From Thermodesulfovibrionia bacterium (lineage in GTDB: Bacteria; Nitrospirota; Thermodesulfovibrionia; JACRGW01): 64,000 bases of DNA. Below, piece by piece: positions 17,405 to 43,070 of the stretch; position 1 is the first letter of the stretch; every line of letters starts with the position of its first letter. The DNA lies in the NCBI GenBank assembly GCA_919902995.1, contig CAKKSD010000032.1, positions 20,336 to 84,335 of the forward strand. The letters are read 5' to 3'. The notes under the pieces are model-generated. The model made no database searches, had not been told where the DNA came from, and was given only the letters and a program-made list of their open reading frames with translations. Both the position numbers and the translations under genes were made by a program.

Positions 17405-18028
17405 TTGTTAAAAAGTATATTCGCTAAGAAACAGGATTTCTTCGGACTCTTTGAAAGTGCATCAAAAAACCTCCATGAAGGTGCCAGACTCCTAAAGGAG
17501 TTGATGGAGGACTATACAAACGCTGAGGAGAAGACAAAGAGGATCTTCAATGTAGAGAATGAAGGTGATCTGATCACCCATGAGACGATTAAGCGGTTAA
17601 ACAAAACCTTCATAACCCCCATAGACAGGGAGGATATCCATGCCCTTATATGTAGACTCGATGATATTCTCGATCTTATCGATGGAACAGCTGATAGGAT
17701 GCTTGTCTTCAAGGTAAAGGAACCAACAACTGAGGCCGTAACCATGTCAAGGATTATATTTACTACTACAGAGGCTATTTCGAAGGCCCTATCCTATCTG
17801 AAAGAGAAGAATTATAGCTATATCAATGAATACTGCATAAAAATTAATCAACTCGAGAATGAAGAAGATAGGGTATACAGAGATGCGTTAGGAAATCTTT
17901 TCGACGCGGAGAAAGATCCTATGATAGTAATAAAATGGAGGGAAATCTATAAGAATATGGAAGATGCTATGGATAAGTGTGAGGATGTAGCTAATATACT
18001 TGAAGGTATAGTGCTGAAGCATGCCTGA
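17405..18028 (+). CDS. DUF47 (PhoU-like, Pit accessory) protein
   Basis: 207 aa helical protein. TTG start with ggagg RBS. Overlaps PiT start by 8 nt, the classic DUF47-PiT arrangement. Confidence 0.7.
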   Translation: MLKSIFAKKQDFFGLFESASKNLHEGARLLKELMEDYTNAEEKTKRIFNVENEGDLITHETIKRLNKTFITPIDREDIHALICRLDDILDLIDGTADRMLVFKVKEPTTEAVTMSRIIFTTTEAISKALSYLKEKNYSYINEYCIKINQLENEEDRVYRDALGNLFDAEKDPMIVIKWREIYKNMEDAMDKCEDVANILEGIVLKHA

Positions 18029-19028
18029 ATTGATCATTATAATCATCATTGTCTTTCTGGCCTTAGCCTTCGATGTAAGTAATGGATGGAATGACTCAGC
18101 TAACGCCATAGCAACAGTCGTCTCAACCAGAGTTCTCAGCCCAGTAGTTGCTGTAGTTATGGCAGCTGTAATGAATATCCTCGGTGCATTTTTTACAACA
18201 GCCGTTGCAAAGACCATAGGAACAGGAATTGTTGACCCCTCTGCAGTAATCCAGCCTGTAGTTGCAGCAGCCCTTCTTTCCGGATTTATCTGGAATGGTC
18301 TCATGACACTTTTGGGAATGCCTGTTAGCGCTTCTCATGCCCTCATCGGAAGTCTAATCGGTGCGGCTGTGGCCTATGGAGGAATTAATATCCTGAATCT
18401 AAAGGGACTCACAAAAATATTTTCTTCCCTGCTTCTATCGCCTCTTTTCGGTTTCATAATAGGAATCCTCTTTATGCTCCTGATCCTTAAGTTCTTCGGA
18501 AATTTTTCTTCAGGATTTGTGAATAAACATTTCGGCAGGCTTCAGATACTTTCATCAAGCTTTATGGCTTTCAGTCATGGCAGTAACGATGCCCAGAAGG
18601 TAATGGGAATAATCACCCTTGCCCTTGTTAGCGGTGGATTCATAAAGAGTGTTGATGTTCCTTTCTGGGTTATGCTGATATGCGCTGTTGCTATGGGTTT
18701 AGGTACAGCCTTAGGTGGATGGAAGGTTATAAAGACACTCGGTATGGGAATGCTTAAGCTCCAGCCAATCCATGGCTTTGCTGCTGAGACTTCTGCTACA
18801 TTGATCATTCTGACCTCAAGCCATTTTGGCTTTCCTGTTAGCACAACCCATGTGATCTCTACGTCTATTATGGGGGTTGGTGCAACAAAGAGGCTCAGTG
18901 CTGTGAGATGGGGAATAGCAGGGAAAATAGTGCTGGCATGGATATTTACTCTTCCCTTATGTAGTATAATGGCATGGCTGATCTGTAAAGGATTTCTACT
19001 TATAAAGTCCCAGGGGCTTTTATTCTAA
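18021..19028 (+). CDS. Inorganic phosphate transporter, PiT/PHO4 family
   Basis: NGWNDSANAIATVVSTR and HGSNDAQKVMG signature pair of the PHO4 family. Confidence 0.85.
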   Translation: MPELIIIIIIVFLALAFDVSNGWNDSANAIATVVSTRVLSPVVAVVMAAVMNILGAFFTTAVAKTIGTGIVDPSAVIQPVVAAALLSGFIWNGLMTLLGMPVSASHALIGSLIGAAVAYGGINILNLKGLTKIFSSLLLSPLFGFIIGILFMLLILKFFGNFSSGFVNKHFGRLQILSSSFMAFSHGSNDAQKVMGIITLALVSGGFIKSVDVPFWVMLICAVAMGLGTALGGWKVIKTLGMGMLKLQPIHGFAAETSATLIILTSSHFGFPVSTTHVISTSIMGVGATKRLSAVRWGIAGKIVLAWIFTLPLCSIMAWLICKGFLLIKSQGLLF

Positions 19029-19061: not shown

Positions 19062-19916
19062 TTACGTCTTAACCACAAGGACAGGGCATGGTGAGTGTCC
19101 GATAACCTTCTCGGTAACACTCCCCATGAGGAGTCTTTTCAGTCCTGTCCTTCCATGAGAACCCATTACAATTGTATTTATATCCTGTTTCCTTGCGAGA
19201 TCTGTTATTGCCAGATAGGACTCACCTTCTCTAACAAAGGTCTCTGTTTTTACTCTTGCGGACTCTGCCTGTTTTTTTACATCCTCCACATAACCCTTTG
19301 CTTTCTTTATCATGTCATCCACAATTTGCGGGGCCTCCCCATAAAACTCGGCAGGGACATCCACAACAGATATTGCCTTCAGTTCTCCTCCGTATGATTC
19401 AGCAAAGTCTATCGCCCTTTTTGTAGCAGTCATACTGTATTTTGAGCCATCAGTGGCAAGGAGAATCGTTTCCCAGGACACAGTTGTATCTCTCGGAACA
19501 ACGAGGATATCTATAGGGCTATAACCTATAACCCTTGCAGTAACACTCCCTACAAGCATCCTCTCAAGGCGACGGAGTCCTCTTCTTCCCATTACAATGA
19601 GATCACAGTTTTCTGACTCCGCAAGATCGATAATCCTCTCGTATGGTTCACCCTCTTCGTAGACAGTCTTTATTAATGCCTTTTCCCTTTCAGCCATCTC
19701 CCGTGCCTTTAAAAGGGCATCCTCGCAGGGCTTCCTCATGGATGCCATAATATCTCCTACGGCAACTGAATCCAGATCACCAGTATAATGAGGCACAACA
19801 GAGACAACAGTTATCCAGCTTTTTTCATTTATTGCAAATTTGAATGACTCCTTTAATGCATGCATGCTCGATTCAGAGCCATCAACAGCAACAAGTAACT
19901 TCTTATATCTTCCCAT
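19062..19916 (-). CDS. Universal stress protein, tandem UspA domains
   Basis: Two USP units (LLVAVDGSESS ... VMGRRG; ILLATDGSKYS ... VMGSHGRTG). Confidence 0.8.
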   Translation of the reverse strand: MGRYKKLLVAVDGSESSMHALKESFKFAINEKSWITVVSVVPHYTGDLDSVAVGDIMASMRKPCEDALLKAREMAEREKALIKTVYEEGEPYERIIDLAESENCDLIVMGRRGLRRLERMLVGSVTARVIGYSPIDILVVPRDTTVSWETILLATDGSKYSMTATKRAIDFAESYGGELKAISVVDVPAEFYGEAPQIVDDMIKKAKGYVEDVKKQAESARVKTETFVREGESYLAITDLARKQDINTIVMGSHGRTGLKRLLMGSVTEKVIGHSPCPVLVVKT

Positions 19917-20991
19917 GTCCGATAGCTTCTTTTGTGGCTATCTTTTCTGTTTTAATTCCCTTCCACATCGCCTTAAGAACTATGAAGGCGCCCAGAAACA
20001 ATGCTAATACCATTATAGCAAAACTTGTGTTTTTCAACAACTTCACAGTTGCCTCGCTTAAAGGCTGGAGGATGCCAAGTTGTGAAAGATAAACAGGAAC
20101 CATCAAGCCACGGCTGAAAAGAACTGTAATCATTATTACACCCATGACTACCTTTATCATGTAGGGTTTCACATAGGTTGTACCAATCGCTCCCAACTGA
20201 ATGCCGAATAGTGAGCCACCAAGGATAATCATTGCAAGGCGGATATCAACAAGGCCACTCAGGGCATATTTAAATGACCCTCCGAGTCCCATAACAAAGG
20301 CGATTACAAGTTCTGTTGCAGATGCCATCAGACTTGGAGCGCCGAGGACATATATCATTGAAGGGACACCTATAAAACCACCGACTGCAATGGTAGCAGC
20401 AAGCATACCTGTGGCAAAGCCGAGGGGGATCGTGAAGAGTACTGAGACCTTTGCGTTAAGGCTTTTAAAATATACCATTGTCCCTGGAATATTAATAGAT
20501 TGTACCCATTTAGCCAGTTTAGTAGCCTTCTCCTCTTCATGGGTATTCCCGGATTTATATGTTTTCAATGCATCAAGCAACACAAAGCTGCCTACGATAC
20601 CAAGCACAACGACGAACGCCACACTAACATAGAGGTTTGAGCCTGCATCACCAAAAGACCTTTTTATGCTTTCCTGAATGTGGATTCCGTACAGTACTCC
20701 TGCCTCTGCTGAAATACCGAGGATAAGACCCAACTTCACATCCACCTGACCATATCTGGCACGCTTAATCGCACCTACAAGTGCCTTCGGAAATTTATGG
20801 CACATATTGCTTGCAACCGCCACAAGCCCGGGCACACCCAAACTCATCATAGCCGGTGTGAGAACGAATGCACCACCAGAACCTATAAATCCGCTTACAA
20901 GACCTCCTATAAATCCGACTACAAAGAGGTAGGCGATATTCATCCAATCGAGATTGATGAAATTAGCCGTTTCGCTTAAGAAACCATCCAT
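19903..20991 (-). CDS. TauE/SafE (DUF81) family anion exporter, long form
   Basis: Two 4-TM halves with GxGGA/GxGGS motifs (GFIGSGGAFVLTP; GGFIGVPSM) and a hydrophilic central loop. Confidence 0.7.
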   Translation of the reverse strand: MDGFLSETANFINLDWMNIAYLFVVGFIGGLVSGFIGSGGAFVLTPAMMSLGVPGLVAVASNMCHKFPKALVGAIKRARYGQVDVKLGLILGISAEAGVLYGIHIQESIKRSFGDAGSNLYVSVAFVVVLGIVGSFVLLDALKTYKSGNTHEEEKATKLAKWVQSINIPGTMVYFKSLNAKVSVLFTIPLGFATGMLAATIAVGGFIGVPSMIYVLGAPSLMASATELVIAFVMGLGGSFKYALSGLVDIRLAMIILGGSLFGIQLGAIGTTYVKPYMIKVVMGVIMITVLFSRGLMVPVYLSQLGILQPLSEATVKLLKNTSFAIMVLALFLGAFIVLKAMWKGIKTEKIATKEAIGHGKI

Positions 20992-27932: not shown

Positions 27933-28913
27933 TTATTCCCATACCCCAAGACCCTTAAGCAGGGCCCTTATCCCAGCAAAGAGTAAAAGTCCTATGACAA
28001 TCCATTTAATCGATTTTGGCTTTGCCTTTGCAAGTATCCTAACACCAACAATTGAACCGAGCATTATACCAATGATGGATGGGACAACAATCATTGGCAA
28101 TACTGCACCTTCGTTTAGATAAACCCAGGCAGCAGTTGTGTCTGTAATAGAAAGGAGAAACTTACTTGTGGCAACAGAGATCTTTAGTGGGGCCCCCATA
28201 AGGAGGTTTAAGACAGGGAGATTTGCCCACCCTGCACCGAGCCCGAACATGCCTGCCATTATGCCGATAGCTATAAATAGAACCAGCCCCTGTGGTGTCC
28301 TATGGATTCTCCATTCGATATCTTTTCCGAGGGATTCTTCCCTGTAAATTCCCATTATTCCCAGGCTCTGAGATAGGGTATCAGGTTTTGGGACGTTTGG
28401 GAAGGCAGATTTCTTTGCCGAGGCCATGATCACTACAATAAATATAATCGTTGCACCGAGAAGTGTCTGGATTATATGGGTTGGCATAGCAAGTCCGATC
28501 ATCGCACCTACTATTGCCGCAGATGATGCAATAAGTGCAACAGGTAGGGCAAGACGGAGACTTGCGAGGTTTCTCTTGAGAAGCCCCGGACCCGCTGCGA
28601 GGGCACCGGAAAGTGCGACAAGAAGACCGGCACCTCTCACAAAGTCGAGATGAAAAGGGAAAAAACCACCCACAATCGGGACAAACAAGACACCTCCGCC
28701 CACACCCCCTAAAACTGCAAGGATACCGAGAATAAATGTGACAACAAATAAGGAAAGAGGCCAGACCCACCAGGGTGGGTTTGAACCTGAAGCTACTCCT
28801 CTGACAATATCCTGACCTTCAGAGGCGAATACGGAGGGATTTAAGAATATAAACAATAGAGATAGAGAAGAAATAATCAATAGAACATTAAAAAAACTTT
28901 TTGAATTAATCAA
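27933..28913 (-). CDS. TauE/SafE (DUF81) family anion exporter
   Basis: 326 aa, repeated G-rich TM motifs (VLGGVGGGVLFVP; GMFGLGAGW). Confidence 0.75.
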   Translation of the reverse strand: MINSKSFFNVLLIISSLSLLFIFLNPSVFASEGQDIVRGVASGSNPPWWVWPLSLFVVTFILGILAVLGGVGGGVLFVPIVGGFFPFHLDFVRGAGLLVALSGALAAGPGLLKRNLASLRLALPVALIASSAAIVGAMIGLAMPTHIIQTLLGATIIFIVVIMASAKKSAFPNVPKPDTLSQSLGIMGIYREESLGKDIEWRIHRTPQGLVLFIAIGIMAGMFGLGAGWANLPVLNLLMGAPLKISVATSKFLLSITDTTAAWVYLNEGAVLPMIVVPSIIGIMLGSIVGVRILAKAKPKSIKWIVIGLLLFAGIRALLKGLGVWE

Positions 28914-29179: not shown

Positions 29180-29554
29180 TTATTGTTTCAGATGCTGACT
29201 CACAATCTGTAAAAGTTCCTGTATCAGAATCGGCTTCGTTAAATAGGCGCTTGCCCCGAGCGATAATGCCCTTTTTCTATCCTCTTCAGCCCCTTCTGTT
29301 GTAATCATTATTATAGGGACATCCTTTTTGGCTGGATCTGCCCTTACGAGGCTAACAAACTTAAGACCATCCATAACAGGCATATTTATATCAACAAAAA
29401 GCATGTCAAAATTCTGACCTACCATCTTTTTCAGTGCATCAACACCATCAGTAGCCTCCACTACCTTTGCCTTCTGGATCCTTTTAAGGGCAAAGGTGAT
29501 CAGTTGCCTCATCGTCGGTGAATCTTCAACTATAAGAAAGTTTATATCTGACAT
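29180..29554 (-). CDS. cheY: CheY-like single-domain response regulator
   Basis: 124 aa receiver, phospho-acceptor D in FDMLFVDINMP, K in YLTKP. Confidence 0.85.
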   Translation of the reverse strand: MSDINFLIVEDSPTMRQLITFALKRIQKAKVVEATDGVDALKKMVGQNFDMLFVDINMPVMDGLKFVSLVRADPAKKDVPIIMITTEGAEEDRKRALSLGASAYLTKPILIQELLQIVSQHLKQ

Positions 29555-29585: not shown

Positions 29586-30410
29586 TCATAGAGGTTTCTC
29601 GTTTAGAAGGTCAATGAAAGTCTGGATTGTTGTCAGTTTTCCTTCGGATTGCGTATAGAGCTTCGAAGAAAATATTGCCGTTGCTGTATGGCCGACTAAA
29701 AGATTGAAGAGTTCATAGTCAACATTTATAAAGCCCTTTTTCTGTATAAGGAGTGAATAGATTGCTATTACTCCTATTACTTTTTCTTTGATCTTAAGGG
29801 GTATGCAGACTACTGGTTTAGAGAGGTCTTTTGAGGTGCGTCCTGGAACAAGTTCTTCAAAGTAACTTTCTCCTGTTATTACTACCTCTCCTATAATCCC
29901 TTCTCCAGACTTTACTTTAGGGATATCTTCCTTATTAAGTCCCTCAGAGGCGATCACTTTTAGCTCTTCTGTCGTTTCATCCACAATCATAATAGCAAAT
30001 CTTTCAGCCCCGATGAGATTTGATACTATCTCGATAACAGTTCTTAATACCTCATTAAAATCGAGTGTGGAGTGGAGCTGGTAGCTTGCCACATACAGGT
30101 TAGCAAGATTATTATTCTCCTCTTCTACATCCAGATATTTAGCAGCAAAGTCTTTATTCTCTGCCTCCACCTGTCTATACCTCTCTTGAATCTCTTTCTT
30201 CTCTTTCTCTAAGATACGACTACGCTCCTCAAGGAATTTTACCCTGTTCTTACCCCTTTCCTTCAGTTCTTCCTCAAGCTCAACCAATTTAAACCTTAAC
30301 CTCTCATTCTCTTTAAGAAGTTCCTGTGTAAATTCCTCACCTTTTCTGAATATCTGAAGGAACTCCTCAGACTTTTTCTGAATTTTGCCTTCTTCTTTTC
30401 TGAGTCCCAA
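29586..30410 (-). CDS. Coiled-coil + GAF domain protein
   Basis: N-terminal about 100 aa heptad-rich (LKENERLRFKLVELEEELKE..), C-terminal GAF-like fold (FAIMIVDETTEELKVIASEG ... VCIPLKIKEKVIGVIAIYS). Confidence 0.55.
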   Translation of the reverse strand: MGLRKEEGKIQKKSEEFLQIFRKGEEFTQELLKENERLRFKLVELEEELKERGKNRVKFLEERSRILEKEKKEIQERYRQVEAENKDFAAKYLDVEEENNNLANLYVASYQLHSTLDFNEVLRTVIEIVSNLIGAERFAIMIVDETTEELKVIASEGLNKEDIPKVKSGEGIIGEVVITGESYFEELVPGRTSKDLSKPVVCIPLKIKEKVIGVIAIYSLLIQKKGFINVDYELFNLLVGHTATAIFSSKLYTQSEGKLTTIQTFIDLLNEKPL

Positions 30411-30511: not shown

Positions 30512-31576
30512 TTATTTCTCCTCCGTCATACACCTCTTGATAATTTCCTCAGGTATTTCCTTCAACGGGAGTATCTTATCAGCAGCCCCTGCAGTTATAA
30601 CCTCCTGTGGCATCCCAAATACAACAGAGGTTTCCTCAGACTCTACAATGGTCTGACCCTTATGCTCTTTTATCGCCTTCATACCATCCTTCCCATCGTT
30701 TCCCATTCCTGTAAGAATAACACCAAGTACCTTTCTTCCATAAACTGCTGCGGAAGACTTCATCATCAGATCTACCGAAGGGACATACTTATCAGTATTA
30801 CTTTTCCTTCTTAGTATTGTCTTAATATTTTCTCCCTTCTTTTCCAGGACCATATGATAACCTCCAGGTGCTATAAGAATCTTCCCCCTTTCAACAGTAT
30901 CTTCATCCTCGGCCTCTTTTACATAGAGGGGAGATATGGTATCAAGTCTTTCAGCAAAATGTTTTGTGAATCCTTCAGGCATATGCTGGGATATAACGAT
31001 CCCTGCAGGAAGGTTTTTCGGGAGTCTCAAAAGGATTGCCTGAATTGCAGGAGGTCCACCTGTTGATGCACCGATCGCAATAAGTTCAACTCCCTTTGGC
31101 TCAGGAAATACCTCTTCAACCTCTCTATACTTACTGCTATCACTCGTAAGGAGATCAAGATTAGCCTTCATCTTAGACATTTCAAGATGTGCGACTGCGC
31201 CAATCTTCTCTATAAGTTCATCTTTGATCTTCTGCAGTTCAGGTGATGCCCTGGCTGTCGGCTTTAAAATAAAATCTACTGCACCAAGCTCAAATGCCTT
31301 AAGGAAACTCCTGTCATCCGCGTAGAAGCTTACTACTATGACAGGTAGAGGGGATTCTTTCATTACCCATCTAAGGAAAGCGAAGCCATCCATAACCGGC
31401 ATCGCTAAATCGAGTGTCACTACATCAGGCTTGAATTTTATCACCCTTGACATCGCCTCCTTACCGTTAGAAGCGGTGCCGATTACATCGATAAAGGATG
31501 TCTGCTGAAGCATCCTTGTTATTGTCTGGCGGCTATACGGAGAGTCATCTACAACAAGAACCCTTATCTTCTCCAT
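30512..31576 (-). CDS. cheB: Protein-glutamate methylesterase/glutaminase CheB (REC + methylesterase)
   Basis: N-terminal receiver plus C-terminal CheB catalytic domain (GASTGGP ... HMPEGFT ... DGKDG). Confidence 0.9.
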   Translation of the reverse strand: MEKIRVLVVDDSPYSRQTITRMLQQTSFIDVIGTASNGKEAMSRVIKFKPDVVTLDLAMPVMDGFAFLRWVMKESPLPVIVVSFYADDRSFLKAFELGAVDFILKPTARASPELQKIKDELIEKIGAVAHLEMSKMKANLDLLTSDSSKYREVEEVFPEPKGVELIAIGASTGGPPAIQAILLRLPKNLPAGIVISQHMPEGFTKHFAERLDTISPLYVKEAEDEDTVERGKILIAPGGYHMVLEKKGENIKTILRRKSNTDKYVPSVDLMMKSSAAVYGRKVLGVILTGMGNDGKDGMKAIKEHKGQTIVESEETSVVFGMPQEVITAGAADKILPLKEIPEEIIKRCMTEEK

Positions 31577-32448
31577 CCCATCTCTCCTGTTAATACCGAT
31601 CTGGTGGGTTTCTGGTAAACAAGGTCATTCTTGAAATGCCTCAGCATGAAGTCTGTAGAAATATTCATTAAAGACTCGGAGTGACCTAAAAGGAGATAAC
31701 CCTCTTCTGTGAGTCTATCATAAAAATTATTGATTACCTTCTTCTTCGTGTCCCTGTCAAAATATATAATTACATTCCTGCAGAATATCACATCCATCTT
31801 ACCAACAAATCTTACCTTGAACGGATCTACGAGATTCAGAAGACTGAAGTTCACCAAACTCCTTACAGGATCCACAATTCTGTAATTCCCTTCTCCCTCG
31901 TCTGTGAAATACTTTCTGATATAATGATCATCTATACTTCTGAAGGCGTTCTTTCTGTAAATTCCTCTCCTTGCTGCATGAAGAACCCTCTGGTTTATAT
32001 CACTCCCCAGTATCTCTATCTCCCATTCAGGCATGAGATTTTTCTCAAGGATCAATATCGCAATTGTATAAGGCTCTTCACCTGTAGAACAACCTGCTGA
32101 CCATATCCTGAGTCTTTTTCTATCCTTCTTCCTCTCACCGATTTCAGGGATGATCTCATCGCTTAATGCCTTAAGCTGAGAGAACTCTCTAAAGAAGTAG
32201 GTCTCATTTACTGTCAGAATTTCTATTACCGATGTCAGCTCTTCATCTCTTCTTTTATCATACATCAAAAAATGGTAATAATCCTCAAAGTTATTTAAGA
32301 GATAATTCTCTACCCTCCTCGATAGTCTCTTCTCTAGGAGGAATTTGGATCCATCGTCGAAATATATTCCACAATAATTCCTTATAAAATCACGGATGAG
32401 CCTGAATGTATCATCAGACATCTTGAACGGCTCCTCTATCCCTATCAT
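31564..32448 (-). CDS. cheR: Chemotaxis protein methyltransferase CheR
   Basis: 294 aa; CheR N-terminal helical domain and SAM MTase domain (RIWSAGCSTGEEPY). Confidence 0.9.
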   Translation of the reverse strand: MIGIEEPFKMSDDTFRLIRDFIRNYCGIYFDDGSKFLLEKRLSRRVENYLLNNFEDYYHFLMYDKRRDEELTSVIEILTVNETYFFREFSQLKALSDEIIPEIGERKKDRKRLRIWSAGCSTGEEPYTIAILILEKNLMPEWEIEILGSDINQRVLHAARRGIYRKNAFRSIDDHYIRKYFTDEGEGNYRIVDPVRSLVNFSLLNLVDPFKVRFVGKMDVIFCRNVIIYFDRDTKKKVINNFYDRLTEEGYLLLGHSESLMNISTDFMLRHFKNDLVYQKPTRSVLTGEMGWRR

Positions 32449-34445
32449 TTCTTTCCTTTAAGTATATCATCCGCTGTCTTTCTGACCACTTCGTCTTCAT
32501 CTGTCTCAGCTACTTTAACGATATATTCTTTAACCTCCTTCTCAGAAAATCTCCCCAATATTTCCAATGCTGCCTTCCTTACACCCCAGTCTCTATCCGA
32601 AAGAAGAGGGAGAAGCTCCTTTAAGATTTCAATAGCCTGAACCTGATTAAAGGCCAGTTTAGAAAGTGTTCTGATGGTGATCTTTTTTAGTTCAGGGTCT
32701 TTTTCTCTAAGTAGTCTTAAGAGGTACGGAAGTGCTGACATATCTCTTATCTCTCCCAATGCCTCGATTACAGAGATCCTTACCATGTGGTCTTTATCAT
32801 CAAGGAGTTCGATAAGCGGAAGGACGGCATCTGGATTCTTAAGTTTTCCAATACCTCTTGCAACTGATGCTCTTACCCTGCTATTTTCATCTTTAAGAAG
32901 TATGATAAGGGAATCAATCCCCTTTTTATAACCAATTTCTCCGATGGCAATGGCCGATGCCATTTTTACCCGTGGTTTCTCATCGGTCAAGGCTGAAATT
33001 AAAAATCTTCCTGCCTCATCTCCCCCAATCATACCGAGTGCCTTAACAGCCGCCTCCCTTACTTCAGGTGATTCATCTTTGATAACAAAGCCAAGGGCTG
33101 AGACCGCCTTCTTCGCCCTTATCCTGCCTAAGATCAGGGCTATATTCTTTCTAAGATTTGATACCTTTGAAGAAAGCATAGGAAGGAGTTGTTCTACCTC
33201 AGCCCCTATCTCGACTATGGCAGTTACGGCAGATTCCTGGACATCATCGTATTCATCATTAAGGAAATCCATGAGTGGGGTTATAGCCCTTCTATCCTTT
33301 ATCTTCCCTAAGGCTATCATTGAGTTTCCCCGTACATGCCCGTCTTCATCAGATAGGGATTTTATCAGTGCCTCAACAGCATTACTATCACCTATCTCTC
33401 CTAAGAGATGGGATATACATCTCCTGATAATATTATCTGGGCTATCTAAGAAAGGGATAAGGGCATGGATAACACCACCCCTTCCGAGAATTAAGAGTGC
33501 CTCCATTATATCTTCTTGAAGTTCGTCTTCCTGGAGAAGATTTACAAGTGGCTCAACAGCCCTTTCATCCCCCACCCATCCTAAAAGCCTTACGGATGCT
33601 AATTTTATCTGAGCCTTCTCTCTTTTGAGTGACTGGAGCAGATAGTCTGATATCTCTCTATCAATATTTTCCTTTATAATTGTGATGACCTCATTATCCC
33701 GAGGGTTTTTCTTAGAAATATCTAAAATAACCTGCATTGCGATTTCTCTGATTGACCTCGAAGGATCCTTCAAGAATTTTATAACCGGAGCCAGTGCCCT
33801 TTTATCCCCAAGGGCACCAAGACCTTTTAAGGCTGCCTCTCTCAGTGGTTTCTCTTTAAGGGCATCAAGAAGTGGCTCGAGAACCCTTGAATCTCCAATA
33901 TTACCGATTGCAATAGCAGCAGGATAGCTAAGCCAGAGTTCCTTCTTTTTAAATATCTTCAAAAGGGGCTCTATTGCCTTCTCATCTCTCATCCTACCGA
34001 TATGTTCTATTGCAGAGAATCTGACATTATCATCCCTATCTGTTAATGCCTTAATAAAGAGAGGAGTAGCCATACTATCTCCAACTTCTCCAAGTATATC
34101 GACGATGAATTTTCTGACATCTTGATGAGCGTCCTCAAAACTGTTTATAAGAAATGGAACTCCCTCTTTACCTATCCCTATGAGTGCCTCAATAGCAGAA
34201 TTTCTCACCCCCGGGTTATCCTGAATACTAAGAGCTGAGATAAGGGCATCTATCACCCTTTTACCACCGATCTTGAGGAATGATTCAACAGAGGTCTTCC
34301 TGACACGCCAATCAGCATCTCCCAAGGTCTTAAGGAGGTGAGGGATAGATTCCTCACCATAATCAGCAAGCCCCAGGGAAGCTAATCTTCTTGTTTCCAC
34401 ATTTTCATCATCAAGGTTTTTTATCAGATCGGCGAAACTATCCAA
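32445..34445 (-). CDS. HEAT/PBS-lyase repeat protein (about 20 repeats)
   Basis: 666 aa of tandem about 31-aa units (VRxxAxxALGxIGDxxAVxxLxxLLxD). Embedded in the che operon. Confidence 0.75.
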   Translation of the reverse strand: MDSFADLIKNLDDENVETRRLASLGLADYGEESIPHLLKTLGDADWRVRKTSVESFLKIGGKRVIDALISALSIQDNPGVRNSAIEALIGIGKEGVPFLINSFEDAHQDVRKFIVDILGEVGDSMATPLFIKALTDRDDNVRFSAIEHIGRMRDEKAIEPLLKIFKKKELWLSYPAAIAIGNIGDSRVLEPLLDALKEKPLREAALKGLGALGDKRALAPVIKFLKDPSRSIREIAMQVILDISKKNPRDNEVITIIKENIDREISDYLLQSLKREKAQIKLASVRLLGWVGDERAVEPLVNLLQEDELQEDIMEALLILGRGGVIHALIPFLDSPDNIIRRCISHLLGEIGDSNAVEALIKSLSDEDGHVRGNSMIALGKIKDRRAITPLMDFLNDEYDDVQESAVTAIVEIGAEVEQLLPMLSSKVSNLRKNIALILGRIRAKKAVSALGFVIKDESPEVREAAVKALGMIGGDEAGRFLISALTDEKPRVKMASAIAIGEIGYKKGIDSLIILLKDENSRVRASVARGIGKLKNPDAVLPLIELLDDKDHMVRISVIEALGEIRDMSALPYLLRLLREKDPELKKITIRTLSKLAFNQVQAIEILKELLPLLSDRDWGVRKAALEILGRFSEKEVKEYIVKVAETDEDEVVRKTADDILKGKK

Positions 34446-34624: not shown

Positions 34625-35098
34625 TTATGCCTTTTCAGTATCTTCTATTGATTCAAGAACAAGCATCTCTTCGGTAGAGAGGATCTTATCGAGATTCAGT
34701 ATTATTATTAACTTTTCCCCTACCTTTCCAACACCTTCGAGATATTCGGTTTTTATTCCCTTAACGATAGTTGGGGGAGACACTATATCTTCCCTTGAGA
34801 GACAGCGTACATCACTTATTCCATCCACCTGAAGTCCAACTATCTCTTCCCCTACCCGGATTAATAATATCCGTTCATTCCCATGTCTGTCAGTAGGTTC
34901 AATACCGAATCTTTTTCTGAGATCTACTATAGGGATAACCTTTCCTCTCAGGTTTAACACCCCCTCTATAAAATCCGGACTCATAGGAAGTCTTGTTACC
35001 TTTTGTGGTCTAAGAATCTCAACCACTCTCATTATATCTATCGCATATTCCTCTTCACCTACGGAAAAAATAGCTAATCTGGTTTCTTGATCTTCCAT
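34625..35098 (-). CDS. cheW: Chemotaxis coupling protein CheW
   Basis: 157 aa single CheW domain. Confidence 0.9.
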   Translation of the reverse strand: MEDQETRLAIFSVGEEEYAIDIMRVVEILRPQKVTRLPMSPDFIEGVLNLRGKVIPIVDLRKRFGIEPTDRHGNERILLIRVGEEIVGLQVDGISDVRCLSREDIVSPPTIVKGIKTEYLEGVGKVGEKLIIILNLDKILSTEEMLVLESIEDTEKA

Positions 35099-36851: not shown

Positions 36852-39341
36852 CTACTTTCCAATCTTCTGCATAATCCTTCCTATTTCACTATAATCATCG
36901 TCGTGTGCTTCGACGAATCCTGTCTGTTTCGGATTTAGGGTTTTCAGAACCTGCCTTGTCTCTTCCTTTTGATTGTTGATGTCGAGAAGGGTCTTTTTAA
37001 GTTTTTCCTCTACTTTTGGGTCAATGTCTTTAGCTACACATATATTAAATCCCGGGATATCTGTAGATACCTTGATAATCTTCAGCCCCTGAGGGATGAA
37101 CTTATAGGCAATAGATTCGAGCATTCCGCCAGCATCAAACTCCCCCTTTAGAACGGACTGGGCAACATTATCATGATGTCCCAGGTATCTATAAGACCTA
37201 AGGTCTTTAAGATCTATTCCAACCTCGAGAAGCATATTTCTTGGGATGATATGGCTTGTTGTCGATTTTGGATCACCAAAAGCAAAGGTCCTACCCCTTA
37301 TATCTTCAACCCTATTAACTTTGCTTCCGTCTTTTGTTACTATTACAGAATTGGTGAAAGGTTTTCCATCAAGGACTTCTTTAACAATGGGCCTAACCCC
37401 ATATCTCTGGCTTGCCTCGATATAGGTAGTGGGTGTCATATAACAGATCTGGGTAACACCTTTGCCTAAATCCTCAATAGTTCCTTCAAAATCGAGGGCC
37501 AGCTTAAGACTTACCTTCATACCAAGGGCTATCGATAGATATTCAGTCAAGGGGGCAAATTTCCTGAACATCTCTGCCGGGGACTCTAAGGGTATAACAC
37601 CCATCCTTAAACCCTTTTCTCGGATATAAACCTCGCTTATCCTAAATCTCCCAGTTTCTGCCTTAAGGAGGTCTGTAGCCTTTGTAAGGGTAAATATCCT
37701 CTGGTTTATCTCGAAGGCGATATCCACAGTTTTCTTTGGTAGCTCCTTTGCCCCTTCTATTGAATTCACTATCAAATCACTTCCAATCTTCTGCTCCTGT
37801 ATGGAATTTGACATGTCCTGAATCTTTTCCGTAACAATCTCAACAGCCTGGGTTATCTGCTTACTTGCCTTAGATTGCTCAGAAGTAGCAGATCTGACCT
37901 TCTCTGTAATATCCCTCATCTTCTCAGCCGCAAGGACTATCTGTTCAACCCCTTTTGTCTGTTCAGAGATAGCGTTAGAAATATGAACTATCATATCCCT
38001 TATCCTGTCCATCGCCCCAACGACCTGCTTTATGCCCTTGGCCTGTTCTATAGTCGCCTTCTCTATCGAAGATGCCATCTCAGAAGAAATCTTCGCACTT
38101 TCCAGTATCTGTTTTAAGGCATCTCCAGCCTCCTTGCTAAGCCTGACCCCTTCTTCCACCTTACTGAGTCCCTCTCCCATCGCCTCTACCGCACCTTTAG
38201 CCTCTCCCTGAACAGAGGCAATGAGGTCTCCTATCTCTTTTGTAGAAGCCGCTGTCTTTTCAGCCAACTCTTTAATCTCCTCCGCTACTACTGAGAAACC
38301 CTTGCCATGTTCCTTTGCCTGGGCAGCCAGGATAGCAGCATTAAGGGCAAGGAGGGATGTCTGGTCAGTAACCTCATCTATAACATTAATGACCTTCCCT
38401 ATCTCTTCGCTTCTGCTGCCAAGCCTGTTTATCAATTCCGCGGTCCTCTCCACCTTCTCTTTTATCCCTTTCATTCCCTCTATTGTCTTTTCTATAGAGG
38501 CCATTCCGAGCTGTGAGGCATCTTCCTTAACCTTATCGGCAAGCCTCGCACTCTCTCTATAGGCGATTTCAACCTCTTTTATAGTAGCGTTAATCTCCTC
38601 AACAGCAGAAGATGTCTCTTCTGACGCCTTAGAAAGGACCTCTGCACTTTGAGCCACTTCCTTTACTGAGGCATTCATCTCATCTATAGAAGAGGCTGTT
38701 CCCTCTACAGAAGTGGATAGTGTAACGGTTGAATTTGCCACTTCATCCACCGACGACATCATTTCGAGTATAGAAGATGAGGTCTGTACAGCCGAAATAG
38801 ACAACTCATCTATAGAAGAAGCAATCCCCTTGATTTCTGCATTCAATTCTTCAACCGATCCAGTAATTGTCTCAATAGAACCAAGCTGTATCTGGGCAAA
38901 TTCTATTAACCTCTTTGAATCATCGGATACCTGAGAACCCACCCTTTCTACTTCTTTTGATACATCATTTATTCCACCGATCATGCTCTCCATATGGAAT
39001 ATAGATTTATTTATTGTATTAGCCAGATCACCTATTTCATCTCTTGATACAATCCCAGAAATCGGAGTGAGATTTCCCTCAGAGACTTTCTTCATAGAAT
39101 CTACCAGTCTTTCAATGGGGTCAATGACCATCCTTCTCAAAAGAACCTGAAGGATTATCGCAAAGAAGATAGCTATAGTTGATGCCAATAGGAAAAGCTG
39201 GACTATATCCCTCTTTAATTCTAATGTCAGGATAACAAGGAATACCATCTCGAGGCCCAGGATTGCGACCACCAGACTGAGGATTTTTATTCTTAGTTTT
39301 CCCTTAAAGATATTAAGTAGACTCATAATCAATTGATACAT
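36852..39341 (-). CDS. Methyl-accepting chemotaxis protein fused to a C-terminal PhnD/SsuA-like (phosphonate-type) substrate-binding domain
   Basis: 2 TM + HAMP + MCP signalling domain (LLALNAAILAAQAKEHGKGFSVVAEEIKELAEKT), then about 290 aa beginning GLRMGVIPLESP.. with hallmarks of the PhnD-like periplasmic-binding fold. Confidence 0.8.
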   Translation of the reverse strand: MYQLIMSLLNIFKGKLRIKILSLVVAILGLEMVFLVILTLELKRDIVQLFLLASTIAIFFAIILQVLLRRMVIDPIERLVDSMKKVSEGNLTPISGIVSRDEIGDLANTINKSIFHMESMIGGINDVSKEVERVGSQVSDDSKRLIEFAQIQLGSIETITGSVEELNAEIKGIASSIDELSISAVQTSSSILEMMSSVDEVANSTVTLSTSVEGTASSIDEMNASVKEVAQSAEVLSKASEETSSAVEEINATIKEVEIAYRESARLADKVKEDASQLGMASIEKTIEGMKGIKEKVERTAELINRLGSRSEEIGKVINVIDEVTDQTSLLALNAAILAAQAKEHGKGFSVVAEEIKELAEKTAASTKEIGDLIASVQGEAKGAVEAMGEGLSKVEEGVRLSKEAGDALKQILESAKISSEMASSIEKATIEQAKGIKQVVGAMDRIRDMIVHISNAISEQTKGVEQIVLAAEKMRDITEKVRSATSEQSKASKQITQAVEIVTEKIQDMSNSIQEQKIGSDLIVNSIEGAKELPKKTVDIAFEINQRIFTLTKATDLLKAETGRFRISEVYIREKGLRMGVIPLESPAEMFRKFAPLTEYLSIALGMKVSLKLALDFEGTIEDLGKGVTQICYMTPTTYIEASQRYGVRPIVKEVLDGKPFTNSVIVTKDGSKVNRVEDIRGRTFAFGDPKSTTSHIIPRNMLLEVGIDLKDLRSYRYLGHHDNVAQSVLKGEFDAGGMLESIAYKFIPQGLKIIKVSTDIPGFNICVAKDIDPKVEEKLKKTLLDINNQKEETRQVLKTLNPKQTGFVEAHDDDYSEIGRIMQKIGK

Positions 39342-39420
39342 GATCCATGATACATGATGTCTGAAAGTTTCGTGTATCTTGTATCATGCATCTTGTATCC
39401 CTTTCCTTATATCTTCATGA
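39342..39420. repeat. TGTATC/CATGAT short-repeat cluster upstream of the MCP-PhnD gene
   Basis: gatacatgatccatgatacatgatg ... gtgtatcttgtatcatgcatcttgtatccc. Confidence 0.55.
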
Positions 39421-40090
39421 CCTCTTCGATATTAAGGAGGCCAATGAATCTATCATCCACCAGGCTTATCCCTTCGAGAAAGTCTGCCTCTATACCTGTG
39501 ATAATAGTAGGAGTAGAATCTATAGACTCCCTAAGGAGTTTAATGACTCCAAGAACCTCATCAACCACAGCACCTATAGTCTCGTTCCTTATTGAGAATA
39601 TAAGAATTCTTCTCTTTTTATCCTGCTGAATTCCTTCCAGACCCAATCTTTCCTTGAGATCAAAGACAGGGATGATCTCCCCCCTTAAGGATGTTACACC
39701 CTTTAGATAGGAAGGTGTTCTCGGAACAGGTGTTATCTCGAGAGGTTTGAGTATTTCCCTTACATAATCTATCTTCACACCGTAAATCTCATCCCCAAGC
39801 CTGAAGGATATTACCTCAACTATTGACTCTTCTTCGCTGTATGGTAAAGAAGGAATCTCCTGAATCTCTTCCCTCACCTCTTTGGTTAACTCAACCTCGC
39901 CTGATTGTAAAAGTATCACTGTCTCTCCCTTTTCAATTGATATTGCCTCTTCTGTCCTCTTCCCTTCTGCTTGAAGATTTGATTCAGCATCCTCAGTCTT
40001 TCCCCGAACCTCTTTCTGTGTTAAGTCCTGGGGTTTTTCTTCCTTCGCCTTCTCCTGCTGTGCCTTTTTCCTAATATTCACAAGATCCAT
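39407..40090 (-). CDS. CheW-domain protein with about 80-aa charged N-terminal extension
   Basis: C-terminal 150 aa is a CheW fold. N-terminal region is K/E-rich and low complexity. Confidence 0.75.
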   Translation of the reverse strand: MDLVNIRKKAQQEKAKEEKPQDLTQKEVRGKTEDAESNLQAEGKRTEEAISIEKGETVILLQSGEVELTKEVREEIQEIPSLPYSEEESIVEVISFRLGDEIYGVKIDYVREILKPLEITPVPRTPSYLKGVTSLRGEIIPVFDLKERLGLEGIQQDKKRRILIFSIRNETIGAVVDEVLGVIKLLRESIDSTPTIITGIEADFLEGISLVDDRFIGLLNIEEVMKI

Positions 40091-40104: not shown

Positions 40105-40917
40105 TCATCCTTTTAGGGCAAAGCCTAACTCCCCTGCAACATCCTCTATTATATCTTCCTCTATCAGACTCACACCTCTTCCAAAACCTTCGAGGAGTGC
40201 ATATGTACAGAGATTATTAATCTTCCTCGGTATTCCTCCTGAATGTCTGTGGACAGATCTGATGGCACTTTCCGTGAAGGTCCTTTCCTCCCTTCCTGCT
40301 ATAGATATTCTATGATTTATATAGGCATAAACCTCTTCTTCTGTGAGTCCTTCAAGGTGATAGAGCAGACCTATCCTCTGTCTCAGAGATTGATATGACT
40401 TCCCCTCAAGTCTTTTCCTTAAATCCGGTTGTCCTATAAGGACTATTGAGAGAAGGTTTGTATCATCGAGCTGGAAATTTGTAAGCAGCCTGATCTCTTC
40501 AAAGGTATCTTTACTTGGTATCAGCTGTGCCTCATCGATGATAATAATAGGTACATTACCCTCTGTATAAAGATTATAGAGAGAATTATAGATAACTTCC
40601 AGGATATTATTTCTGGATCTCGAAGGGCGGTCAATGCCAAATCCGCTTGCAAGGGTCTTTAACAGGTTAACCGGACTCAGACGGGGATTAATAATTAAGA
40701 CAATCTTATGGGAACTATTGAGGGAGTCTATGAGCGCCCTCGAAAGTGTGGTTTTCCCGGAGCCAATCTCTCCTGTGAGCAGAATAAACTCTTTCTCCTC
40801 AACTCCATACTGTAATCTCGCAAGTGCCTCGGCATGACCTTTACTCATATAGAGGAATCTCGGATCAGGGGTCTTACTGAATGGTTTCATCTTAAATCCA
40901 TAATATTCTTCGTACAT
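40105..40917 (-). CDS. ExeA/GspA-like AAA+ ATPase (AAA_22), no peptidoglycan-binding domain
   Basis: Walker A GEIGSGKTT, Walker B IIIIDEAQ, N-terminal YGFKMKPFSKTPDPRFLY typical of the ExeA family. Confidence 0.7.
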   Translation of the reverse strand: MYEEYYGFKMKPFSKTPDPRFLYMSKGHAEALARLQYGVEEKEFILLTGEIGSGKTTLSRALIDSLNSSHKIVLIINPRLSPVNLLKTLASGFGIDRPSRSRNNILEVIYNSLYNLYTEGNVPIIIIDEAQLIPSKDTFEEIRLLTNFQLDDTNLLSIVLIGQPDLRKRLEGKSYQSLRQRIGLLYHLEGLTEEEVYAYINHRISIAGREERTFTESAIRSVHRHSGGIPRKINNLCTYALLEGFGRGVSLIEEDIIEDVAGELGFALKG

Positions 40918-41045: not shown

Positions 41046-43070
41046 TCATCTCCTTCTCACCATTGCCTCATCAATAAGGGCCTCTACATCTAAAACGAGT
41101 ATAACCTTATACTTTCCCATTTCTGTTGCCCCTGAAATCCCGGGGACACCCTTGAGGCTTTCTCCAAGAGATTTTATTACAATCTCCTGCTGTCCTATAA
41201 AATCACTCACCACTAAGCCGATCCTTCTCTCTCCAAAACCTACTACTACAATATTAATATTCTCTGTATCCTCACCAGGAGGCAGATTGAATGTCCTATC
41301 CAGTCTCATAAGAGGTAGCATCTCTCCCCTCAGTTCCAAGACCTCCCTCTTCTCTATGCTCTGCACCTTCTGGAAAGGAATCATCAGGTTTTCAGATACC
41401 GAGTTAATAGGGATCGCAAATATCTCCTTTGAAACCTTTACAATAAGTGCTTTAATGATCGCTAAGGTGATAGGAATTGTAATTGTGAAGGTAGTCCCCT
41501 TGCCAAACTCTGTGTCAATTTCAATGAAGCCACTAAGATCAGAGACCCTTGTCTTCACCACATCCAACCCCACACCACGTCCCGACATCTCTGTCACGTC
41601 TCTTTTAGTCGTAAAACCAGGGAGAAAGAGAAGTTCCAGTATTTCTCTCTTATTCAATACGGCATCCCTCTCGACGAGATCTCTCTCCATAGCCTTTTTA
41701 ATGACTGTGTCCGTGTCAATGCCTGCTCCGTCGTCTTCGATAGTTATGGCAACATGATTACCTCTTGGAAAGGCGCTGAGCCGTACAGTACCCCTCTCTT
41801 TTTTACCTGATCTTCTCCTGATATCAGGGGTTTCGATACCATGATCGATAGCATTTCTTATAATATGCATAAGCGGATCGGCTGTCTCCTCTGCCAGGAA
41901 TTTATCCAGTTCTGTCTCTTCGCCATAAAATTCCAGATCCACTTCTTTTTCTATACCTTGGCTGTAACGTCTCACAACCTGAGAAAGTCTTGAGAAGATC
42001 TGTCCTACAGGTATCATTCTCACCTCCATAATCTCATTCTGTAATGCGGTGAGTCTCTTACCTAATGACTGTGACACCCTTTGAAGGTCCATAGAAAGGA
42101 TGCTGTAGCCCTGAAGTTGTTTTAGTTCCTTACTTATTCTTCCAACGGCGGCCCTCGTGAGAACAAGTTCACCTACTGTATTCATAAGCCTATCTAACCT
42201 TTCAATATCTACCCTTACCGTCTTGCTCGTACTTTTTAATGATATATCTGAGGTAGAAGGAGTTCTGACCCTTGGTTCGTCTGATCTCTCCGAAGTTTGT
42301 ATGTCTTCAACATTTCCTACCCCTTTTTTCCTGCCAACCTCTTCAACAACAACCTTTCCCTTTCCTACTCTTTGGCTTATCACTTCAAGGTCTTCACTGC
42401 TACCTATGAGAAGGGTAAACTGGATTCCTTCCTGAGGAGATACCCCTGATGAAGGCAAGGTTGTAATAACCTCTCCTATGGTCTTCACTTTGTTATTCAG
42501 ACCTTCCAGATCTGTATCGAAACTCTGCAGATCAAAACTTGCCTTCAGAAGAAAGATATTTCTGCCTTCTTTAATATTGGTCTTCAGGCGGTACTCTTCA
42601 TATTCGGTGAGGACCTTAAGGATTGCCTGGTCGATATCAAGGGTATCTATGATAGAAATCTCAGAACTTTTTGACTTATCTCTAATAAATAGATCGATGT
42701 CGGAAAGTATGCCTTCAATATCAGTTACCTCTTCTCCCTTTTCTGCATCTCCAAGAAGTTTCCTCAATATGCCTAATCCTCCTATAATAAGATTGAGGAC
42801 ATCACGGTTAAGGTCTATCTTACCGAGACGGAGAGTATCAAGAAGGGATTCAAGACGGTGACTCAACTCGGACATTCTATTTAGGCTAAATATACCTGAT
42901 AGACCTTTTAGGGAATGGACTCCCCTAAAGATGGCATTCAGGGTATCAGGATTAAATTTCTCTTGGTAGGTTTCTTCTAATTCTTCAATATTATTGTTGA
43001 TTTCTGTCAGGAGATCTTCTGCCTCACCTAAAAACTCCTTCCTTGATCTCTCACCACCTATATCTGGCAT
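41046..43070 (-). CDS. cheA: Chemotaxis histidine kinase CheA
   Basis: Hpt (HSLKGLSG), dimerisation, HATPase_c (DDGAGID; GRGVGLDVV) and C-terminal CheW-like domain. Confidence 0.9.
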   Translation of the reverse strand: MPDIGGERSRKEFLGEAEDLLTEINNNIEELEETYQEKFNPDTLNAIFRGVHSLKGLSGIFSLNRMSELSHRLESLLDTLRLGKIDLNRDVLNLIIGGLGILRKLLGDAEKGEEVTDIEGILSDIDLFIRDKSKSSEISIIDTLDIDQAILKVLTEYEEYRLKTNIKEGRNIFLLKASFDLQSFDTDLEGLNNKVKTIGEVITTLPSSGVSPQEGIQFTLLIGSSEDLEVISQRVGKGKVVVEEVGRKKGVGNVEDIQTSERSDEPRVRTPSTSDISLKSTSKTVRVDIERLDRLMNTVGELVLTRAAVGRISKELKQLQGYSILSMDLQRVSQSLGKRLTALQNEIMEVRMIPVGQIFSRLSQVVRRYSQGIEKEVDLEFYGEETELDKFLAEETADPLMHIIRNAIDHGIETPDIRRRSGKKERGTVRLSAFPRGNHVAITIEDDGAGIDTDTVIKKAMERDLVERDAVLNKREILELLFLPGFTTKRDVTEMSGRGVGLDVVKTRVSDLSGFIEIDTEFGKGTTFTITIPITLAIIKALIVKVSKEIFAIPINSVSENLMIPFQKVQSIEKREVLELRGEMLPLMRLDRTFNLPPGEDTENINIVVVGFGERRIGLVVSDFIGQQEIVIKSLGESLKGVPGISGATEMGKYKVILVLDVEALIDEAMVRRR

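Follow-up and report, generated by a model that had tools for sequence, protein, structure and literature searches.

Why would a complete and selectively maintained substrate-binding protein (SBP) fold be found inside the cell, at the "wrong" end of a chemoreceptor? The question is raised by a gene in a 64,000-nucleotide stretch of contig CAKKSD010000032.1 (positions 20,336 to 84,335 of the forward strand, assembly GCA_919902995.1), hereafter the window, from a groundwater Nitrospirota bacterium (Thermodesulfovibrionia). A first description made without database searches, which we call the sequence-only reading, had proposed that this gene encodes a methyl-accepting chemotaxis protein (MCP) extended at its C-terminus by an SBP domain of the phosphonate/phosphite type. 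Based on the evidence presented below, we consider it fairly probable that the product is a membrane-anchored chemoreceptor of a complete Che pathway and that its sole candidate sensor, the C-terminal cytoplasmic SBP domain, senses a small anion.

The open reading frame (ORF) is present exactly as first described, and both Pfam and a hydropathy scan bear out the proposed order of two transmembrane (TM) segments, HAMP, MCP signalling domain and SBP (Table 1). The hydropathy scan found only these two TM segments in the protein, both N-terminal. Since their spacing is just 7 residues, they form a hairpin that leaves no periplasmic sensor domain. The N-terminus (KGKLRIK) is positively charged, consistent with a cytoplasmic location. 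By every test applied, the protein qualifies as an MCP: these included the MCPsignal score, the hairpin-tip motif DQTSLLALNAAILAAQAKEHGKGFSVVAEEI read from the translated sequence, the membrane anchor with HAMP, and the che gene context. The SBP domain had initially been placed from about residue 540 onwards, with a length of about 290 residues. The domain is indeed there, but its true start is G577 (GLRMGVIPLESP) and its length is about 253 residues. Residues 540–568 belong to the final MCP helix, and SBP-less MCPs in our library stop at query residue ~568.

The Pfam check, matches to solved structures, AlphaFold2 modeling and Foldseek agree that the C-terminal part is a complete SBP domain of the PhnD/PtxB type. 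The Phosphonate-bd family (PF12974) covers residues 580–817 along its entire profile (positions 1–242 of 242) with an E-value of 2.9e-62 and a score of 210.6 bits (cut-off 27). At a finer level, the NCBIfam model for the phosphate/phosphite/phosphonate SBP subfamily, TIGR01098, was passed (146.4 bits, cut-off 112.05) and the PhnD equivalog, TIGR03431, was failed (143.4 bits, cut-off 261.1). The nearest sequence with a solved structure is PtxB (5o2j, E = 2e-31), followed by ArrX, HtxB, PhnD and AioX. The AlphaFold2 model of residues 545–829, based on 59 aligned sequences, has a mean predicted local distance difference test score (pLDDT) of 94.1 and a predicted template modeling score of 0.85. 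Foldseek matched this model to PtxB, ArrX, PhnD, HtxB and AioX with E-values from 1e-30 to 1e-22. The corresponding TM-scores, normalized to the target, were 0.68–0.87 for ligand-bound entries and lower for open apo forms; in other words, the model fits closed structures better than open ones. As modeled, the domain has the two-lobed fold of type II periplasmic binding proteins (PBPs).

The topology leaves little doubt about the location of this domain. HAMP and the signalling domain have to be in the cytoplasm to contact CheA and CheW, and so the SBP domain should be there as well. The hydropathy scan, which covered 12 orthologues as well as the window protein, detected no hydrophobic segment between the MCP hairpin and the SBP domain in any of them, and no signal peptide precedes the SBP domain in the fusion protein. 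Thus, the cytoplasmic placement suggested by the sequence-only reading is upheld and strongly indicated by topology. Judged by general features of ABC-transporter SBPs, the domain does not belong to that class: it has neither a signal peptide or lipoprotein anchor nor adjacent permease and ATPase genes, and no transporter permease or ATPase genes that could serve it were found in the operon or in the annotated part of the window. At the MCP/SBP junction itself, we observed no start-codon context, no terminator and no promoter signal above chance.

The same architecture recurs in related organisms. In a scan of 185,579 species-representative genomes, the fusion was found on 12 Nitrospirota/Thermodesulfovibrionales contigs from metagenome-assembled genomes (MAGs), at 47–94% identity, the closest locus being that of the groundwater Nitrospirae MAG JACRGW010000158. 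HMMER, run exhaustively against the representatives of 1.84 billion clusters formed at 50% identity, returned about 19 full-length fusion clusters, plus fragments, that are 38–48% identical to the query. The match extends over query residues ~45–828 in both sets, as one continuous ORF on each MAG contig and as a single-stretch alignment in each full-length cluster. So far, the fusion is confined to uncultured Nitrospirota. Every match at least 40% identical to the SBP domain turned out to be an MCP fusion or a fragment thereof. No stand-alone cytoplasmic relatives were present among these matches, as the seemingly "free" ones either start within the MCP C-terminal helix or are contig fragments.

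The SBP domain is under purifying selection, with dN/dS values of 0.18, 0.13 and 0.04 for three orthologue pairs and values for the MCP part close to these. Among 13 orthologues, the mean pairwise identity of the SBP domain (0.60) is higher than that of the methylation-helix arms (0.55–0.57) and of the TM segments plus HAMP (0.44), and lower than that of the signalling core (0.75). The least conserved stretch is the linker between the MCP and SBP parts (0.29). The conservation can also be observed within the binding cleft. Across 53 non-redundant domains of the fused clade, entropy is 1.03 bits at positions equivalent to PtxB contacts versus 1.67 bits elsewhere (one-sided Mann-Whitney p = 0.007). 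H723 is present in all 53 domains, S693 in 51, and both D724 and F765 in 48. Judged from these alignments, the binding cleft is conserved in the fused clade.

What kind of ligand could the cleft accommodate? We mapped the ligand contacts of Ps_PtxB and Te_PtxB (PMC5700983) onto the window protein via HMMER alignments. The loop S693-T694-T695-S696-H697 corresponds to the anion-binding S-T-S loop of PtxB (S124-T125-S126), and H723 to the ligand-binding His (H155/H160), which is kept. The residue before it, H722, is also His in most of the fused clade (36 of 53), whereas PtxB and most secreted relatives have Ser, Thr or another residue there. The remaining contact positions differ. L585 replaces the latch Asp (PtxB D16/D22) and is Leu in 42 of 52 domains. 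The first oxyanion-binding Tyr (PtxB Y49/Y55, also Tyr in ArrX) is replaced by F618, with Phe in 37 and Tyr in 11 of 53. T663 stands in the position of the hinge Tyr (PtxB Y94/Y100, ArrX Y138), where orthologues have Thr, Gln, His or Arg, all of them polar. Finally, F765 replaces the capping Tyr, which makes the P-H...pi contact in Te_PtxB (Y208). L585, F618 and F765 are the majority residues across the fused clade. Of the features that define a PtxB-type site, then, the S-T-S loop and the His are there, and the Asp-latched capping Tyr and the two oxyanion Tyr residues are not. For comparison, the alignment shows that ArrX has Met at the latch position and no capping Tyr, and that it retains both oxyanion tyrosines.

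These residues suggest a cleft that resembles an anion site and is predicted to be more hydrophobic and richer in histidine than that of PtxB. They also show that the pocket departs from canonical phosphite and phosphonate sites, and binding in the canonical mode is unlikely. The ligand is probably a tetrahedral oxyanion-like species held by the S-T-S/His core. Oxyanion sensing by PF12974 domains is well established, which makes an oxyanion of sulfur, phosphorus or arsenic in the cytoplasm, or else a small organic anion, a reasonable candidate. The list of candidates is speculative, and it also takes in a small organic acid and a phosphoester.

How could such a domain control a chemoreceptor? 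Because the MCP hairpin doubles back, the C-terminus would end up next to HAMP, in the part of the bundle closest to the membrane, and a linker of about 8–15 residues would tether the SBP domain there. Venus-flytrap closure on a small cytoplasmic anion may then alter contacts or packing of the membrane-proximal bundle or of HAMP, and this would bias the control of CheA. Most members of the family would receive a periplasmic signal as well, from a haem-c, Cache or 4HB domain, and integrate it with the internal one. The window protein would have the internal input alone, making it a metabolism-dependent, energy-taxis-like receptor. Control of an MCP from within by a C-terminal domain has been proposed for DcrH (PMC9388753), Tlp1 (PMC3604760) and TlpD (PMC13001251).

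Several observations weigh against the SBP domain being an anion sensor coupled to the bundle in this way. The AlphaFold2 model runs the last MCP helix to within two residues of strand beta-1, but pLDDT there is only 57–75. The linker is short yet unconserved, and indels of 0–5 residues make its length variable among orthologues, all of which argues against rigid helical coupling and makes it doubtful. In PtxB and ArrX, the oxyanion receives hydrogen bonds from two tyrosines, which PhnD has as well; here both are replaced (F618; Thr, Gln, His or Arg at 663), so that binding could be weak or different in kind. One orthologue (L012, 9569–12406) has an anion loop without the four residues T-S-S-H and is intact otherwise; it could be either naturally blind to the ligand or the product of a faulty assembly. 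Some MCPs of this subfamily have no SBP domain (P0087–P0089), which means that the domain is dispensable for receptor function as such. In addition, all members of the fusion family come from uncultured organisms, and the tree that places the fused domains in one clade, described below, is only suggestive.

The alternative that survives best makes use of the same observations. It holds that the SBP fold is not a sensor at all but a module for protein–protein docking or assembly, recruiting CheR/CheB, the HEAT-repeat or AAA_22 proteins encoded in the same operon, or neighboring receptors. There is a general precedent for recruitment by the C-terminus of an MCP, as the flexible tail and terminal pentapeptide of Tar and Tsr recruit CheR and CheB. 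A flexible, unconserved linker of variable length is what a tether might look like. The loss of the two canonical oxyanion tyrosines together with the Asp/Tyr latch, and the truncated anion loop of L012, would be easier to understand, and AAA_22 and HEAT-repeat proteins are unusual and constant partners in the operon. We nevertheless regard a docking role as unlikely. Conservation is significantly higher at the cleft positions than elsewhere in the domain (H723 is invariant, and S693 and D724 are nearly so), a pattern to be expected of a ligand-binding site and not of an interaction surface. Characterized members of the SBP fold family all bind small anions (PMC5700983, PMC5908839). Furthermore, a docking role would leave the hairpin-only receptors without any sensor, yet such receptors have been kept in at least four branches of the family.

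A second alternative retains the sensory role and makes it a conventional one: PhnD- or PtxB-style sensing of intracellular reduced phosphorus in the form of phosphite, hypophosphite or phosphonate. Phosphite-binding PtxB is the best match both by sequence (5o2j, E = 2e-31) and by Foldseek (E = 1.5e-30), the S-T-S/His motif is kept, and F765 provides an aromatic ring at the cap position, where PtxB makes its contact to the P-H hydrogen. However, the PtxB determinants D16, Y49/Y55, Y94/Y100 and the capping Tyr are Leu, Phe, Thr and Phe here, and the Y208F substitution alone cuts phosphite binding by Te_PtxB about 1000-fold (PMC5700983). The score for the PhnD equivalog is far too low (143 versus 261 bits), and PtxB-like sequences with the D/Y/Y signature belong to a separate, more distant clade. 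Likewise, no phn, ptx or htx genes were found among annotated ORFs of the window or beside the relatives examined. Given the failed TIGR03431 cut-off and the differing pocket residues, we rejected a canonical PhnD or PtxB identity for the domain, and we find this mode of sensing improbable, more so than docking.

Finally, the idea that separate genes for an MCP and a secreted SBP were merged by a sequencing frameshift or an assembly chimera is scarcely credible. On a related contig (L015), the SBP domain is annotated as a 279-aa gene of its own that overlaps the end of an MCP gene, but its reading frame remains open upstream and encodes the MCP C-terminal helix, revealing a frameshift inside a fused gene. 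Elsewhere, the ORF runs on without a break in twelve MAGs assembled independently and in the full-length representatives of about 19 clusters. The junction also has none of the signals that two genes would be expected to leave: neither a signal peptide nor a TM segment, no start-codon context, no terminator and no promoter above chance. The hidden separate gene with a signal peptide, which the sequence-only reading had named as grounds for abandoning the fusion, was accordingly not found, and we rejected the two-gene explanation.

Returning to the cytoplasmic sensor, we asked where it came from and how old it is. The nearest secreted relatives are ~28–37% identical to the SBP domain and have clear signal peptides. 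Their genes tend to be found next to those of signal transducers: P0026, P0044 and P0039 are encoded directly upstream of MCP genes, P0027 adjoins a HAMP-GGDEF gene, and P0046 adjoins a gene for a HAMP-PAS histidine kinase. No phnCE-type genes were seen beside the secreted relatives examined. Secreted PF12974 clades beside signalling genes occur in Desulfobacterota and other bacteria (L016 7001–9885, L017 7001–10274, L020 5075–8490, L019 4640–6840 and L022 6001–8786). These neighbors are probably uncharacterized two-part sensing pairs of the AioX/AioS kind. In a neighbor-joining tree, which has no support values, the fused SBP domains form one clade nested among the signalling-associated secreted clades, and the PtxB-like sequences that carry the D/Y/Y signature branch off at a greater distance as a clade of their own. 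The fused clade takes in a group carried by a much shorter MCP (P0207, 634 aa). A single origin of the MCP-SBP fusion is therefore probable on this tree.

The sequence-only reading had taken the neighboring MCP, which lacks the SBP domain, as a sign of recent domain accretion. This does not agree with a fusion that persists in about 19 full-length clusters, at identities as low as 38%, and whose SBP domains form one clade. These comparisons instead point to a fusion that is old and conserved. Since the SBP domain is old and stable, and it is the window protein that lacks the periplasmic module of most of its relatives, "recent accretion" has the history the wrong way round.

Indeed, it is the N-terminal sensor that varies in the fused family. 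It may be a PF21563 CxxCH domain, sCache_3 or Cache_3-Cache_2, 4HB_MCP, or nothing other than the hairpin. Most fused relatives carry one of the periplasmic modules (haem-c, Cache or 4HB), in contrast to the window protein with its hairpin only. In L002–L012 (for example, L007 9509–12361), P0070 and P0074, a periplasmic domain of ~135 residues with a CxxCH motif matches PF21563 (Mcp40H-20_sensor). The motif suggests that this domain is a covalent haem-c sensor, which would give those receptors two inputs. Hairpin-only forms that carry the SBP domain are found in at least four branches (window/L001, P0072, P0076/P0080 and P0081). Given that these forms keep the SBP domain, it may be sufficient as a sensor.

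Another example of an exchanged N-terminus is provided by the neighboring MCP itself, referred to here as MCP2. As originally noted, it shares the hairpin and HAMP module with the fusion protein and has no SBP domain; identity is ~50% over residues 1–100 and 46% overall. However, the first 100 residues of window MCP2 show just 12–23% identity (sliding window) to those of its L001 counterpart (L001 12498–14579), which has a periplasmic domain of ~125 residues, whereas from residue ~300 on the two proteins are 95–100% identical. Window MCP2 thus looks like a recombinant mosaic, in which the N-terminal sensor module was apparently swapped very recently between near-identical genomes. We rejected recent accretion relative to MCP2: it was MCP2 that had its N-terminal 100 residues replaced, not the fusion that gained an SBP domain.

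The picture of sensor evolution that emerges is one of a stable C-terminal module and an N-terminal haem-c, Cache, 4HB or absent module that is freely exchanged, even between near-identical genomes. It invites a tentative scenario, which we put forward as a possibility and with considerably less confidence than the sensory role itself. A secreted PhnD-like lineage whose members at first signalled the presence of an external oxyanion to chemoreceptors, cyclases and kinases may have moved into the cytoplasm of Nitrospirota by fusion to the C-terminal end of an MCP. Such a receptor would weigh external conditions, sensed by a periplasmic haem-c, Cache or 4HB module, against an internal pool of a respiratory or nutrient oxyanion (a sulfur, arsenic or phosphorus species, for example), and the hairpin-only forms would be steered purely by the internal level.

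Sensors located after the signalling domain are not without precedent. The sequence-only reading held that ligand-binding domains of known MCPs are N-terminal and periplasmic. This is too strong, as DcrH (PMC9388753), Tlp1 (PMC3604760) and TlpD (PMC13001251) have C-terminal sensors. The fusion protein shares the defining architecture of this class, an additional folded domain (residues 577–829) following the signalling hairpin. The closest parallel is Desulfovibrio vulgaris DcrH, which consists of a TM segment, a periplasmic region, a second TM segment, HAMP, an MCP domain and a cytoplasmic C-terminal sensor; it also comes from an anaerobe, and the route from its C-terminal domain to the MCP domain is likewise not understood (PMC9388753). 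The two differ in the sensor, which in DcrH is a four-helix diiron hemerythrin responding to O2 and in the fusion protein a non-homologous type II PBP with an anion cleft. In Tlp1 of Azospirillum brasilense (PilZ, PMC3604760) and TlpD of Helicobacter pylori (CZB, PMC13001251), a domain that binds a small molecule or an ion follows the hairpin and also modulates output from inside. Their folds and ligands are different (c-di-GMP and zinc/oxidants, respectively), neither has an SBP fold, and TlpD is soluble.

From the perspective of the SBP domain, the most relevant comparison is to AioX, ArrX and ArxX, which have the PF12974 fold, bind oxyanions and feed a signal transducer, not a transporter (PMC5908839, PMC8050422). 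AioX and ArrX are sensors of arsenic oxyanions (PMC5908839). Foldseek gave TM-scores normalized to the target of 0.83–0.87 and E = 4e-27 for ArrX and an E-value of ~1e-22 for AioX. In both cases the SBP is tied to a signalling partner, here by covalent fusion to an MCP, with secreted relatives encoded beside MCP, GGDEF and histidine kinase genes. However, AioX, ArrX and ArxX are secreted as proteins in their own right and dock onto a histidine kinase from the periplasmic side, whereas the domain described here is fused, cytoplasmic and part of a chemoreceptor. ArrX also differs in keeping both oxyanion-binding tyrosines. TtrS and ThsS, which sense tetrahedral oxyanions without phosphorus (tetrathionate and thiosulfate), provide an example of PF12974 fused into a signalling protein (PMC5408782), but their domain is N-terminal, periplasmic and upstream of the transmitter, and here it is C-terminal, cytoplasmic and downstream. 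The closest solved structures, those of PtxB (5o2j, 5jvb and 5lv1), are 25–29% identical and have the S-T-S loop and the ligand-binding His in common with the window protein. Unlike PtxB, which is secreted and serves an ABC transporter, the window protein has L585, F618, T663 and F765 in place of the Asp latch, the two Tyr residues and the cap, and no transporter genes nearby.

The ingredients of this receptor are thus known, both C-terminal cytoplasmic sensors in MCPs and PhnD-like sensors in signalling, and a cytoplasmic SBP domain after the signalling domain appears to be undescribed. In full-text literature searches aimed at this architecture, we found no MCP described as having a Phosphonate-bd or SBP domain at its C-terminus, and a review of SBP-mediated signalling treats SBPs as extracytosolic (PMC8050422). 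In public records, the fusion proteins are named ABC-transporter binding proteins, MCPs or hypothetical proteins. For example, proteins of 630–960 aa in the P0077 cluster, P0083, P0085/P0234 and the P0207 cluster are annotated as 'phosphate/phosphite/phosphonate ABC transporter substrate-binding protein'. Such systematic misannotation of chemoreceptors would inflate the phosphonate/phosphite uptake inferred for Nitrospirota MAGs. Should the domain bind a metabolite, it would offer a purifiable model for the coupling between a C-terminal domain and the MCP bundle, which is unresolved for DcrH, and a model for linking taxis to the internal metabolic state. If the ligand is an internal oxyanion, taxis in the hairpin-only forms would depend on metabolism in a new and ligand-specific way, by means of a fold deemed extracytosolic. 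Being soluble and cytoplasmic, an anion-binding domain of new specificity could also serve as a biosensor scaffold.

The genomic context supplies the rest of the pathway (Table 1). In every locus long enough to be assessed, the gene order is CheA, AAA_22 ATPase, CheW, MCP-SBP, second MCP, CheW and HEAT-repeat protein. The AAA_22 and HEAT-repeat proteins, retained wherever loci are long enough, are not canonical members of a Che operon; nor is the GAF protein, which was seen in the window.

Table 1. Positions of the fusion gene, its encoded domains and ligand-contact equivalents, and neighboring genes in the window.
Feature	Coordinates	Strand	Basis or remark
MCP-SBP fusion gene, complete with stop codon, 829 aa, ATG start	36852..39341	-	ORF, domains, 12 orthologous loci with continuous ORF
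TM1, residues 20-38	39228..39284	-	Kyte-Doolittle, 19-residue window, score 2.89
TM2, residues 46-64	39150..39206	-	hydropathy scan
HAMP (PF00672), residues 67-112	39006..39143	-	Pfam, E = 1.5e-9, 38.5 bits (cut-off 25)
MCP signalling hairpin, residues 119-568, ~64 heptads by length	37638..38987	-	Pfam and sequence
MCPsignal core (PF00015), residues 280-449	37995-38504	-	Pfam, E = 4.9e-42, 144.1 bits (cut-off 34.6)
Linker EVYIREKG, residues 569-576	37614..37637	-	joins MCP bundle end (RFRIS) to SBP strand beta-1
SBP domain, PhnD/PtxB family, type II PBP, residues 577-829	36855..37613	-	PF12974, TIGR01098, AlphaFold2, Foldseek
L585	37587..37589	-	latch position
F618	37488..37490	-	first oxyanion-Tyr position
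T663	37353..37355	-	hinge-Tyr position
Anion-binding loop S693-T694-T695-S696-H697	37251..37265	-	S-T-S loop of PtxB
H722-H723-D724	37170..37178	-	ligand-binding His of PtxB
F765	37047..37049	-	capping-Tyr position
CheA (Hpt, dimerisation, HATPase, CheW-like), first gene of conserved cluster	41046..43070	-	Pfam, synteny
AAA_22 P-loop ATPase, between CheA and CheW	40105..40917	-	Pfam, synteny
CheW with N-terminal extension of ~90 aa, immediately upstream of fusion gene	39407..40090	-	Pfam, synteny
MCP2, paralogous chemoreceptor without SBP, 564 aa	35116..36810	-	Pfam, identity comparisons
Second CheW	34625..35098	-	Pfam, synteny
HEAT/PBS-lyase-repeat protein, 666 aa, before CheR	32445..34445	-	Pfam, synteny
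CheR	31564-32448	-	annotation
CheB	30512-31576	-	annotation
GAF protein	29586-30410	-	annotation
CheY-like receiver	29180-29554	-	annotation; completes operon
TauE/SafE sulfite-exporter-family genes	19903-20991 and 27933-28913	-	one directly downstream of Che operon
PiT/PHO4 phosphate transporter	18021-19028	+	
Further MCP, 717 aa	8017-10170	+	

Beyond the operon, the neighborhood of TauE/SafE, PiT, cytochrome and housekeeping genes in the window gives no specific clue to the ligand and shows no link to that of the SBP domain. The N-terminal extension of the CheW protein encoded just upstream of the fusion gene is charged and rich in Lys and Glu and has no Pfam match; the orthologues are extended at the N-terminus too, with poor sequence conservation. 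No clear Shine-Dalgarno sequence precedes the ATG at 39341 within the 65-nt spacer that separates the fusion gene from this CheW gene. The spacer (39342–39406, minus strand) contains two kinds of short direct repeats, GATACAAGAT and ATCATGTATCA, each present twice. A second in-frame ATG of the fusion gene (M6) corresponds to the likely start of the gene in L001.

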